Below are positions 1 through 64,000 of a DNA stretch of 64,000 bases, one piece after another. The DNA is taken from positions 13,851 through 77,850 of the forward strand of contig DCIB01000022.1 of NCBI GenBank assembly GCA_002315915.1, in the 5' to 3' direction. Position 1 is the stretch's first letter. Each line of letters begins with the position of its first letter. The DNA is from Bacillales bacterium UBA1737. Its GTDB lineage: Bacteria; Bacillota_I; Bacilli_A; ML615J-28; CAG-313. Under the pieces are notes generated by a model. It was not told the origin of the DNA and did no database searches. It was given only the letters and a program-made list of their open reading frames with translations. The translations under genes were made by a program, and so were the position numbers.

Positions 1-1
1 A

Positions 2-268
2 AAATCATTAATTGATACTATAAAATTATTAAAAAATAATAATTTTTTTGTTTATTCAACATCTTTAAAAGATTCTATTAATATAGCAGATTTACATATC
101 AATAAAAAATTTGCAGTTGTATTTGGTAATGAAGCACATGGAGTTTCAAAAGAAGTAATTGATTTATCCGATAATTCTATTATTATTCCAATGGAAAACG
201 ATTGTGAATCATTAAATGTATCTGTTGCATCGGGAATTATTTTATATGAATTAAAAAAATCTCTTTAA
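2..268 (+). CDS. SpoU/TrmH-family RNA 2'-O-methyltransferase, C-terminal fragment (5' end outside window)
   Basis: Frame 2 is open from the window edge to TAA 266-268. The translation ...FAVVFGNEAHGVSKEV...IIPMENDCESLNVSVASGIILYEL carries the SpoU motifs (GNEaxG, IPM, SLNVS). It is absent from the ORF track because it is 5'-truncated. Confidence 0.65.
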   Translation, partial: KSLIDTIKLLKNNNFFVYSTSLKDSINIADLHINKKFAVVFGNEAHGVSKEVIDLSDNSIIIPMENDCESLNVSVASGIILYELKKSL

Positions 269-290
269 GTATTTCTTAAAGAGATTTTTA
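257..290. terminator. Bidirectional intrinsic terminator between convergent genes
   Basis: Perfect 13-bp inverted repeat AAATCTCTTTAAG / CTTAAAGAGATTT (257-269 / 275-287), flanked by A-run and T-run. Confidence 0.6.
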
Positions 291-61395: not shown

Positions 61396-61443
61396 AGGCC
61401 TATATTTCAAAACTTACGTTTTGAAATAAAAGGCCTTTTTTTA
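61396..61443 (+). terminator. Intrinsic terminator after yhaM
   Basis: Long hairpin AGGCC...ATTTCAAAAC-TTAC-GTTTTGAAAT...GGCCT followed by TTTTTTT. Confidence 0.75.
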
Positions 61444-61504
61444 TATAATAATATTGTTATAATTACGCATAATATACCAATTTTTTGAAAGGATTTAAGA
61501 ATTT

Positions 61505-64000
61505 ATGTTAAAAAAGATACTACCTGTTGGTATTGGAATAGTTTTGATTCTACTTATTACACTTACAATTTCTTTAATTAAAAAAGGTAATGATAGACTT
61601 CCTACTGTTGATAATGCTGACGAAGTATATGCATCATATGGTGATTATGATATCACTTATGACAAATTATATACTACAATGAAAAACTCTTATGCATCTA
61701 ATATGAATAACTGTTATGGATTAACTGAATTAATAAATTTAGTTGATTCTAAAATCTATAAAACAGAAGTAGAAAACATTCAAGCTTTAATTGATTCTAC
61801 TAATGCTGATGATTTAAATAAGAAAAATGCATATTATGATTATGTTTTAGATGCTATTTTAGGTATTGATCATGAATGGAGTTCAACTAAGCAAGATGAA
61901 TTAGAAACTATTGCTGAATCTTGGAATGATGTTGTTACTTCTTTAAACTTGAATAATATAATAACAAAAGCTGAAGCTAATCAATGCTTAATTAATAAAA
62001 CAGGCGATCCTGCTGAATATAATTTTACTATTAATAATATTATGTCTTCTAAAGCATGGGAAAAGTTATTACAAGAATATAAACTTTCATATGCTAGAAG
62101 AGAATGGGCAAAAGCTGCTTATTTAGATGAATACTTTTCTGAATATGGTAAAGATGGAAGTTTTGTTGAATTAATAGAAGATGAAGATGATGATAATTAT
62201 TCTAAAACATTAGAATACTATTATGATAATAATTATTCATCTACTGTATATGCATTATACATACCATTTACATCATATAATGCTGCTTTAAAAGCAATGG
62301 CTAGAGCTGGTATTAATACTACTACTGATCTATTAAGTAAAAATGGATGGGTTGATTATTCATATAACTACTATACAGATGAATTTGAAGATAGTGATTA
62401 TATGGATTATTCTGAAGTTCTTGCTGCATTTATTAAAATGTATAATGAAGTTTATGGATATCAAAATGTCTCAATTGCTACAAGTGATTTTGAAAGCGTT
62501 GAATTAAAGAATCAAACAGCATATAAAGCTGCTGCCTTAATTCAAGACTTTTTAAAAGGTATTAAACTTGGTAATGATGTTACATTAAATAATACTTATG
62601 AATTTAATGTTAATAATGGATTTGCTGATAAAGTAACTATTACTTTAAATTTTGATTCAGTAAAATCTTCTTCAAGTTTTACTGTAACTAATCCAACTGA
62701 GACTACTACAAAAATTGAAGTTAAAAATTCTTCATTTACCGCAACATCATCATCAAAAACATTAAAAGCTACTATAAATATAAATGCAGTATATGAAAAA
62801 GATGGTGAAAAAATTGAACAATCTATTTCGCAAGCCCTTGAATTTAAGGGTAAAGTTACTTCAACTACAACTGATGATGTAACTACATATACATTTGAAA
62901 CATCAACTGCTACTGCTGATATAGAAGCTACACCAAACTATACTCCTTCAGCAATAGATGCATGTATGGGATATAATGTAAAACAATCTTTATTAGATAA
63001 AGAAGATGCTAATGAAAATATTCATATTTCATGGACTGAAGATTTAATGAGTACTTATTCTGCATTAGATGCTTATTTATGTCCAGGAGAAGTAATTGAA
63101 CAAAGTGCAACATTATATATTCCTAATGATTATAAAAATATGTATAAGACATATACAATTAAACCTGTATCTGTAGGTGATTATTATGCTCTTATATTAC
63201 TAATAAATTTTGATGAATTACCAGAAAACTTATATACAGTTGTTGATGGTGAAACAGTATTTGATCCAGCTAGTGGAAGAACTGATGCTGAAAATAATGC
63301 ATTAAAAGATGAAATCATAGCTTCGATGAAAGAAGATTTATATACTGATAACAATATTGCAAAAATGGTATATGAACATAGAAATGAATATGGATTTGAA
63401 ATTTATGATCGTTTCTTAGAAGCTATTTATTCATATAATTATGATTATTTCTTTGGAACAACACTTTCAGAAACTGATTATGATGAATTTAATCAAACTA
63501 AACATAACCAAAAGAAAGTTGTTGCTAAAATTAAAGCTAATACTTCTGATAAAAAAGCAACAGTAGAAATTACTGCTCAAGATTTATTTGATGTATTAGA
63601 AGCTAAATATGCATCTACTACAGTATCTTCTTTAATTAGAAATTATATATTAACTTCTAATAAAGACTATAACCCAATTTATAATACTTATACTAATTCT
63701 TTAGTAAATGATAATTACAAAGAAATATATCGTGCATTATTAACTGGTGAATTAAATTCATTCCAAAAGAATTTTGAAGCTGGATATTTCACATATTCAT
63801 CATTATCTAGTTATTTTGTACCTAATTTCCCATCAGATTATGGATGGAGTAATTTTATTAAAGATTATTTTAATGCATATACTGATCAAGAACTATTAAC
63901 TAGTCCAACATTTGGTGGTTCTTTATATCGTTTAGCATATGAATTATATTCTAAAGAAATTCTAACTAAAGATGCTACTATTACTTCTTACTTAGATGAT
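61505..64000 (+). CDS. Large membrane-anchored surface protein with two PrsA/SurA-N-like chaperone modules (3' end outside window)
   Basis: ATG 61505; the frame is open for 832 codons to the window edge and is absent from the track because no stop is reached. N-terminal TM LPVGIGIVLILLITLTISLI. Two stretches, EVYASYGDYDITYDKLYTTMKNSYA and VVAKIKANTSDKKATVEITAQDLFDVLEAKYASTTVSSLIRNYIL, resemble the PrsA/SurA N-terminal pattern. No parvulin domain appears within the window. Confidence 0.5.
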   Translation, partial: MLKKILPVGIGIVLILLITLTISLIKKGNDRLPTVDNADEVYASYGDYDITYDKLYTTMKNSYASNMNNCYGLTELINLVDSKIYKTEVENIQALIDSTNADDLNKKNAYYDYVLDAILGIDHEWSSTKQDELETIAESWNDVVTSLNLNNIITKAEANQCLINKTGDPAEYNFTINNIMSSKAWEKLLQEYKLSYARREWAKAAYLDEYFSEYGKDGSFVELIEDEDDDNYSKTLEYYYDNNYSSTVYALYIPFTSYNAALKAMARAGINTTTDLLSKNGWVDYSYNYYTDEFEDSDYMDYSEVLAAFIKMYNEVYGYQNVSIATSDFESVELKNQTAYKAAALIQDFLKGIKLGNDVTLNNTYEFNVNNGFADKVTITLNFDSVKSSSSFTVTNPTETTTKIEVKNSSFTATSSSKTLKATININAVYEKDGEKIEQSISQALEFKGKVTSTTTDDVTTYTFETSTATADIEATPNYTPSAIDACMGYNVKQSLLDKEDANENIHISWTEDLMSTYSALDAYLCPGEVIEQSATLYIPNDYKNMYKTYTIKPVSVGDYYALILLINFDELPENLYTVVDGETVFDPASGRTDAENNALKDEIIASMKEDLYTDNNIAKMVYEHRNEYGFEIYDRFLEAIYSYNYDYFFGTTLSETDYDEFNQTKHNQKKVVAKIKANTSDKKATVEITAQDLFDVLEAKYASTTVSSLIRNYILTSNKDYNPIYNTYTNSLVNDNYKEIYRALLTGELNSFQKNFEAGYFTYSSLSSYFVPNFPSDYGWSNFIKDYFNAYTDQELLTSPTFGGSLYRLAYELYSKEILTKDATITSYLDD

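Follow-up and report, generated by a model that had tools for sequence, protein, structure and literature searches.

Is UGA leaving the genetic code in an uncultured, very AT-rich lineage of the Bacilli? The question is raised by 64,000 nucleotides of Bacillales bacterium UBA1737 (GCA_002315915.1, contig DCIB01000022.1, positions 13,851 to 77,850; hereafter the window), in which few genes end in TGA. A preliminary description of the window took this scarcity as the mark of an unassigned or rare UGA on the codon-capture route to UGA = Trp. We found that UGA is an assigned stop codon read by release factor 2 (RF2) and that the stop-codon skew is normal and family-wide for this very AT-rich uncultured group. 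The unusual point is a different one: prfB, the gene of the very release factor that reads TGA, contains a conserved in-frame TGA in the place of a tryptophan codon. We consider it probable that the whole pattern reflects ordinary AT-rich stop usage, a leaky UGA, and self-regulation of RF2 by readthrough of prfB.

TGA as a stop codon

The window occupies positions 13851–77850 of contig C27 in the source metagenome-assembled genome (MAG), G000 in our labeling of the compared species genomes (G001–G010, G243, etc.). G000 comprises 1.04 Mb in 29 contigs with 25.7% GC, and its completeness of 69.5% is a caveat on the genome-wide census. Genes were called with a home-made open reading frame (ORF) and codon-usage caller that takes longest-ORF starts, giving 940 genes and 93% coding sequence in G000, and the relatives' census applied the identical caller to contigs of 17 further relatives, totaling 1.5 Mb. 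The order was sampled with 106 species genomes from two families; its class also includes genomes of 0.5–1.2 Mb that lack prfB. The genomes with the prfB TGA, which we call the clade, are nine species genomes at genus level with sizes of 1.0–2.1 Mb, as in free-living bacteria.

An independent ORF call reproduced the count of the preliminary description, with 62 gene 3' ends in the window divided into 48 TAA, 12 TAG, and 2 TGA, and it placed the two TGA stops and the TAA codons behind them at exactly the same positions:

28480-29079, + strand: ABC-transporter ATPase gene ending in TGA at 29077-29079 (Pfam ABC_tran, E=1.5e-14)
29076-29079, + strand: ATGA overlap of the ABC ATPase stop (TGA) with the start (ATG) of the downstream gene (238 aa, 29076-29792)
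29086-29088, + strand: in-frame TAA three codons past the ABC ATPase TGA (AAT ATA TAA), within the next gene in another frame
35751-36434, + strand: queH (epoxyqueuosine reductase), closed by a free-standing TGA (36432-36434; next base A) (Pfam PF02677, E=1e-56)
36459-36461, + strand: in-frame TAA after eight sense codons past the queH TGA, in the queH–secA spacer

The claim that UGA is almost unused was, however, overstated and stems from the small sample. Across G000, TGA ends 66 of the 940 genes (7.0%), next to 738 ending in TAA (78.5%) and 136 in TAG (14.5%), and the TGA share of the window, 2/62, is no different from that outside the window (Fisher P=0.31). The observation of scarce TGA stops is nevertheless confirmed, as is the view that the skew is not a matter of composition alone: TGA is truly below TAG (66 vs. 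136, binomial P=9.5e-7) despite a 1:1 ratio of the two trinucleotides in intergenic DNA.

The placement of the TGA codons is that of a working stop. Among the 62 TGA-ended genes that have a later TAA or TAG, 57 carry it within the final 10% of the frame bounded by TAA or TAG; sense codons are expected to scatter along genes. The stop overlaps the next ORF at 46 of the 66 TGA-ended genes (70%), compared with 18% of TAA and 10% of TAG stops, and at 36 of the 66 it lies in an ATGA start/stop overlap, 27 of which match a called downstream start. TGAs locked in this arrangement survive AT pressure because a change to TAA would destroy the start of the next gene. The C-terminal tail of the ABC ATPase is too variable among orthologues to inform on the stop position, but that of QueH is informative: its orthologues terminate at the matching position, through TAA in two genomes (G007, G003) and TGA in two (G008, G002). 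The gene-end position, the ATGA overlaps, and the agreement of the queH C-termini with TAA-ended orthologues together show that UGA still works as a stop. As a side observation, the queH of G008 (contig C12) closes with a triple tandem stop, TGA TGA TAA.

No excess of back-up stops was found after TGA, either relative to TAA and TAG stops or relative to outgroup genomes. In G000, an in-frame stop follows within 3 codons of 36% of TGA, 34% of TAA, and 24% of TAG stops, and within 9 codons of 70%, 65%, and 64%, respectively, neither comparison being significant; with genes that overlap their successor set aside, the back-up figures are 22%, 31%, and 23%. When the free-standing TGA stops of six clade genomes were pooled, the next TAA or TAG came after a median of 6 codons, compared with 7 for TAA and 9 for TAG stops (P=0.48 and 0.10), and the distance in the clade was no different from that in outgroups (P=0.77). 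Both back-up TAAs of the window are the chance supply of DNA with 25% GC.

Low TGA usage is also the published expectation for genomes of this composition. Wei, Wang & Xia (2016) reported that UGA usage drops as AT rises and that UAG outnumbers UGA once third-position AT exceeds 0.708, naming Staphylococcus aureus, Streptococcus pyogenes, and Bacillus anthracis as UAG-over-UGA species (PMC4989110). In the same work, the RF2 share correlates with AT content and is modeled to approach zero at high third-position AT (PMC4989110). With a third-position AT of 0.90 and a UGA/(UGA+UAG) ratio of 0.33, G000 belongs with the AT-rich Bacillota (third-position AT above ~0.71 and a ratio below 0.5). It resembles them in its dominant UAA and in having less UGA than UAG, the ratio of 0.33 comparing with 0.30–0.40 in their highly expressed genes, and differs in that its third-position AT exceeds the range of the species with measured RF1/RF2 (PMC4989110).

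The relatives tell the same story. The TGA share is 7.7% (125/1633) in six genomes of the clade and 9.7% (65/668) in seven relatives with TGG at the corresponding prfB codon, which represent six sister genera of the same family and the congeneric G004; we thus rejected a depletion of TGA stops specific to the clade (P=0.11). Their family, f1, has a TGA share of 8.3% vs. 14.4% in five genomes of family f2 (P=3e-4), whose samples are more GC-rich, and the single GC-matched f2 genome has 9.1%. Because low TGA usage is found also in sister genera with an ordinary prfB and agrees with the published AT expectation, the skew is not a sign of reassignment.

These results make it very improbable that UGA is unassigned or nearly so, a codon-capture intermediate in which TAA back-ups guard the last UGA stops. 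That reading drew on the two TGAs among the 62 stops of the window and on the TAA near both. It is contradicted by the 66 TGA stops genome-wide with their concentration at gene ends and in ATGA overlaps, by back-up stops at ordinary frequency, by an RF2 that is intact, conserved, and under purifying selection (see below), and by similar usage in relatives with a normal prfB; the AT-rich Bacillota pattern has, moreover, already been explained without reassignment (PMC4989110).

The in-frame TGA of prfB

The preliminary description had also mentioned a TGA inside prfB, and this proved to be the substantial part of it. The relevant features are the following:

39154-40242, + strand: prfB (RF2), a single reading frame without a +1 frameshift site (TIGR00020 491.9 bits, profile positions 3-352; Pfam PCRF and RF-1)
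39289-39291, + strand: in-frame TGA at prfB codon 46, within the PCRF domain (context GAC TTT TGA ACA GAT CAA; +4 base A)

In translation, the TGA stands between GEPDF and TDQRSA, and the SPF and GGQ motifs of RF2 are kept. It represents a change of UGG to UGA at the codon for Trp-46, which most of the sampled relatives conserve, and the change is retained clade-wide. In an alignment with 28 relatives, the codon-46 column contains TGG 18 times, TAT (Tyr) 3 times, and TGA 8 times, the last in species genomes that all belong to the same genus; the ninth genome with TGA is G009, whose codon 46 lies on a contig fragment. All nine sites follow the pattern TT[TC] TGA A[GC][TA] [GA]AT CAA, with A at +4 in 9/9, and none of the 89 other prfB genes of the order has TGA at this codon. 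In the RF2 tree, the TGA-bearing prfB sequences are monophyletic (support 100/98) and sister to the TGG-bearing gene of the congeneric G004 (97/92), with terminal branches reaching 0.46 substitutions per site. For unsaturated pairs, dN/dS in the 45 codons upstream of the TGA is 0.10 (G003–G006) and 0.27 (G001–G002), and in the remainder of the gene 0.07 and 0.16, respectively. RF2 scores 476–495 bits against TIGR00020 across the clade.

Single-base nonsense changes are common in MAGs, and two further genes of G000, for a short-chain dehydrogenase and a transporter, are interrupted by TGA as well; one could thus regard the prfB TGA as a pseudogene mutation or an assembly error to which the stop-codon skew is unrelated. 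With the TGA at the same codon in nine independently assembled species genomes whose flanks have diverged, purifying selection on either side of it, and uniformly high RF2 scores throughout the clade, we hold this to be scarcely credible, the least probable of the explanations considered.

Nor did we find another way past the TGA. A +1 or −1 frameshift at TTT TGA was rejected as RF2 continues in frame 0, and three clade members have TTC TGA, which offers no +1 re-pairing. Re-initiation was rejected as well: the next in-frame ATG, GTG, or TTG lies 37–95 codons downstream, at unconserved positions, and its use would remove domain 1 and more. A conserved RNA structure around the TGA found no backing, RNAalifold predicting no pairs in the flanks. 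Given the TGA common to nine genomes, the purifying selection on both sides, and the lack of a frameshift or a conserved restart, full-length RF2 must come from decoding of the UGA.

The prfB frame is uninterrupted by frameshifting in the order as a whole. The gene is present in 97 of the 106 genomes and is contained in one frame in 97/97; the +1 frameshift cassette (a Shine–Dalgarno (SD)-like element, CUU UGA C, and a second ORF in the +1 frame) was found in none of these 97. The canonical cassette, GGAGG...CTT TGA C, occurs in prfB of another family of the class (G243), which indicates that the order has lost an ancestral device. A search for further in-frame prfB TGAs in the class flagged, among the matches listed, only this G243 gene, and the case was rejected as the canonical CTT TGA C frameshift.

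Two observations concern the ends of the gene. At the 5' end, secA and prfB overlap by one base in TAATG (window 39152-39156; TAA of secA, ATG of prfB), and by virtue of this overlap the two genes are predicted to be translationally coupled; secA itself has its start at ATG 36486, preceded by an AGGAG ribosome-binding site, and not at the TTG at 36410 of the longest ORF. At the 3' end, the prfB genes of G001 and G002 encode an acidic C-terminal extension of 10–15 residues and themselves end in TGA; RF2 of these genomes would terminate its own mRNA at UGA besides being gated by one.

Other in-frame TGAs and the tRNAs that could read them

G000 has 2191 TGG codons and at most 4 in-frame TGAs, with 0.4% of genes containing one. 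Besides prfB, there are three candidate TGA-interrupted genes, next to three comparable candidates interrupted by TAA and none by TAG:

Contig C20 of G000, 115739-116530, + strand: short-chain dehydrogenase (SDR) gene with one TGA, at a conserved site where 19 homologues have Ala (one of them Ser)
Contig C12 of G000, 37129-38448, − strand: MFS-type transporter gene with one TGA in a transmembrane helix, at a variable site with I/G/A in the few distant homologues
Contig C20 of G000, 71153-71530, − strand, outside the window: XRE-like HTH gene with an in-frame TGA at about codon 34, between YAKQN and LSITEF

The SDR gene is probably a nonsense allele whose UGA does not encode Trp. The small residue at its site raised the alternative of UGA = Gly (code 25), which we rejected: RF2 is present, the prfB site is occupied by Trp or Tyr, and there is no other conserved sense TGA. 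For the MFS gene, an intact paralogue exists on contig C13, and a search for a homologue in the PDB found none. The extra TGAs of G000 look like ordinary nonsense alleles, possibly tolerated since UGA leaks. A sample of 693 genes from five other clade genomes contained in-frame TGA only in prfB and in one dubious transposase-like case, and for that reason UGA is not a general sense codon.

Tryptophan in these genomes is served by tRNA-Trp(CCA). We found one such gene per genome in nine genomes of the genus, identical in six and adjoining tRNA-His in most. G010 has in addition a second, divergent tRNA-Trp(CCA) (contig C8, 42421-42468), 73% identical over the aligned part of the gene, which could be a contaminant (the genome has 3% contamination) or a second isoacceptor. 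A suppressor tRNA or a duplicated tRNA-Trp was rejected as an explanation for the genus, the second gene of G010 also having the CCA anticodon. No tRNA with a UCA anticodon, suppressor tRNA, or selenocysteine (Sec) tRNA was found among the 29 tRNAs of the 97%-complete G007, an inventory that is itself incomplete (without Asn and Ile), and no selB reached the cut-off in 11 genomes of the genus. With neither selB nor tRNA-Sec, selenocysteine at the prfB TGA was rejected too.

The tRNA-Trp itself has features associated with UGA reading. Compared with the Escherichia coli sequence, it has C9, A24, and a C27·U43 mismatch that leaves a 4-bp anticodon stem. The mismatch is C27·U43 in G000, G003, G006, G007, G009, and G010 and U27·C43 in G008; in G001 and G002, the position has a G27·U43 wobble pair. 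Fakih et al. showed that a tRNA-Trp(CCA) whose stem comprises 4 bp reads UGA in E. coli, state that A9C and G24A likewise favor readthrough of this codon, and found that the 4-bp stem accompanies lower usage of UGA stops in 13/19 orders (PMC13092985). The present lineage is like theirs in the unpaired 27–43 (C·U), in having this as the only Trp tRNA found, and in low UGA-stop usage; it is unlike them in that the tRNA adds C9 and A24, a class set aside in the paper, and in that the code is still standard (PMC13092985). C9, A24, and C27·U43 occur also in sister genera with TGG in prfB, and we thus rejected a clade-specific change of tRNA-Trp; judged from the gene sequences, these features form a background common to the family rather than an adaptation of the clade. 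We infer that, through them, UGA would be intrinsically leaky in the organisms of this family. The context most prone to misreading by tRNA-Trp is UGA followed by A (PMC5289835). Among free-standing TGA stops, the next base is U in 58% and A in 25% in the clade (n=57) and U in 45% and A in 50% in the sister genera (n=20), which hints at an avoidance of the leaky UGA-A context at the free-standing stops of the clade, with numbers too small to test.

Could the clade instead be at an early stage of reassigning UGA to Trp? The closest precedent is 'Candidatus Providencia siddallii' PSAC, in which, as Manzano-Marin et al. (2023) interpret it, the replacement of UGG by UGA in prfB set off a code change (PMC10540940). 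As in PSAC, prfB is retained with an in-frame UGA derived from UGG and hence interrupted at a Trp codon, trnW has the CCA anticodon, AT content is extreme, and there are some true UGA stops. PSAC is, however, one strain of an endosymbiont, and 20% of its genes contain in-frame UGA, whereas we see a nine-species clade in which sense UGA is otherwise essentially absent; where 1–20% of genes with UGA at Trp positions would be looked for in a PSAC-type genome, G000 has in-frame TGA in 0.4%, and only prfB, among the cases examined, replaces a conserved Trp. The established code 4 of the Mycoplasmatales and Entomoplasmatales is more distant still. These lineages belong to the same class, have extreme AT content, and read UGA as Trp; prfB is missing from their genomes, tRNA-Trp(UCA) is usually present, and UGA is their principal Trp codon, and nothing of the kind applies here (prfB is present, in-frame TGAs number four at most, and tRNA-Trp has CCA in nine genomes of the genus).

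According to such an account, the clade would be arrested in a PSAC-like stage in which the prfB UGA lowers RF2 as a side effect and not as regulation, genes lose their UGA stops, and the first sense UGAs emerge. The combination of the prfB change, trnW-CCA, and extreme AT speaks for it, as do the three extra in-frame TGAs of G000 next to no in-frame TAG, a third-position AT of 0.90 that lies past the point where the modeled RF2 share nears zero (PMC4989110), and the 4-bp anticodon stem of tRNA-Trp, also known from Zinderia (PMC13092985). We nevertheless consider this account unlikely, though well above the two dismissed earlier. The 693 clade genes outside G000 hold only the prfB TGA and one dubious case, and within G000 neither the SDR TGA, at a conserved Ala/Ser, nor the MFS TGA, at a variable site, replaces a conserved Trp. 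TGA-stop usage is not below that of the sister genera, RF2 is well conserved, and the state has been kept without progress through an RF2 divergence of up to ~0.46 substitutions per site.

Proposed regulation of RF2 by readthrough of its own gene

We return to the reading that we prefer: ordinary AT-rich stop usage, a leaky UGA, and RF2 regulating itself through prfB. AT pressure would turn free-standing TGA into TAA, and surviving TGA stops are mostly held in ATGA overlaps with the next start, as in the ABC ATPase of the window. RF2-dependent termination would be the weaker arm in very AT-rich Bacillota, as the published correlation between RF2 share and AT content suggests, and a UGA-prone tRNA-Trp(CCA) with C9, A24, and unpaired 27–43 may make UGA leaky. 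Against this background, one clade of the genus has fixed UGG→UGA at Trp-46 of prfB, such that full-length RF2 is made only when tRNA-Trp reads the UGA of codon 46. RF2 and tRNA-Trp would compete at this codon, and RF2 synthesis would go up when RF2 activity goes down; by competing for a UGA in its own gene, RF2 would turn prfB into a negative-feedback sensor of RF2 activity. The feedback itself is a proposal, prompted by the conservation, the position, and the context of the TGA and by the absence of alternatives. The pattern fits an ambiguous, leaky UGA, with Trp inserted by readthrough beside RF2 termination, and not an unassigned one; of the original interpretation, the UGG-to-UGA change within prfB is retained, and the unassigned or codon-capture UGA is not.

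By readthrough, the prfB TGA would play the part that elsewhere falls to the classical +1 frameshift, which the whole order lacks. The two have in common an early, RF2-specific UGA at which RF2 termination has to fail for full-length synthesis. They differ in that the clade's gene shows no change of frame, no SD-like stimulator, and no CUU, that the UGA is at codon 46 (Trp) and not at about codon 26, and that the +4 base is A and not C; escape from termination must here be by near-cognate decoding. Autoregulation of RF2 by readthrough had been entertained before RF2 genes were sequenced, as recounted by Atkins et al. (2016), according to whom no RF2 gene was known that has an in-frame UGA early on and continues in the same frame beyond it (PMC5009743). 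That the prfB of this clade is such a natural case, with RF2 autoregulated by in-frame UGA readthrough, Trp restored by tRNA-Trp(CCA), and an otherwise standard code in a stable state, we judge to have even chances of being correct.

Several observations weigh against the preferred reading. TGA usage in the clade is not below that of its sisters, so the prfB change has had no visible genome-wide effect, and the difference in TGA usage between families f1 and f2 is confounded by GC content; the stop census as such was made with a home-made caller and, for the relatives, from partial contigs. The three extra TGA-interrupted genes of G000, one with its TGA at a conserved Ala/Ser, could reflect a relaxation of UGA termination rather than a switch specific to one gene. 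The features of tRNA-Trp are common to sister genera that keep TGG in prfB; they may thus explain why the prfB change is tolerated and not why it was selected. Finally, the prfB TGA comes without a conserved flanking RNA structure.

For genome annotation, the immediate consequence is that standard pipelines will call prfB a pseudogene or truncated in genomes of the clade. More generally, low UGA usage alone should not be taken as a code change under way; the controls that separate the two are a genome-wide census, sister lineages, back-up statistics, the position of in-frame TGAs, and the C-termini of orthologues. If the proposed regulation is true, the clade possesses a feedback loop on a release factor that is based on readthrough, and it offers a rare, stable snapshot of the ambiguous decoding that is thought to give rise to UGA = Trp codes. 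A lineage could then stay for long in an ambiguous-UGA state without drifting to code 4.

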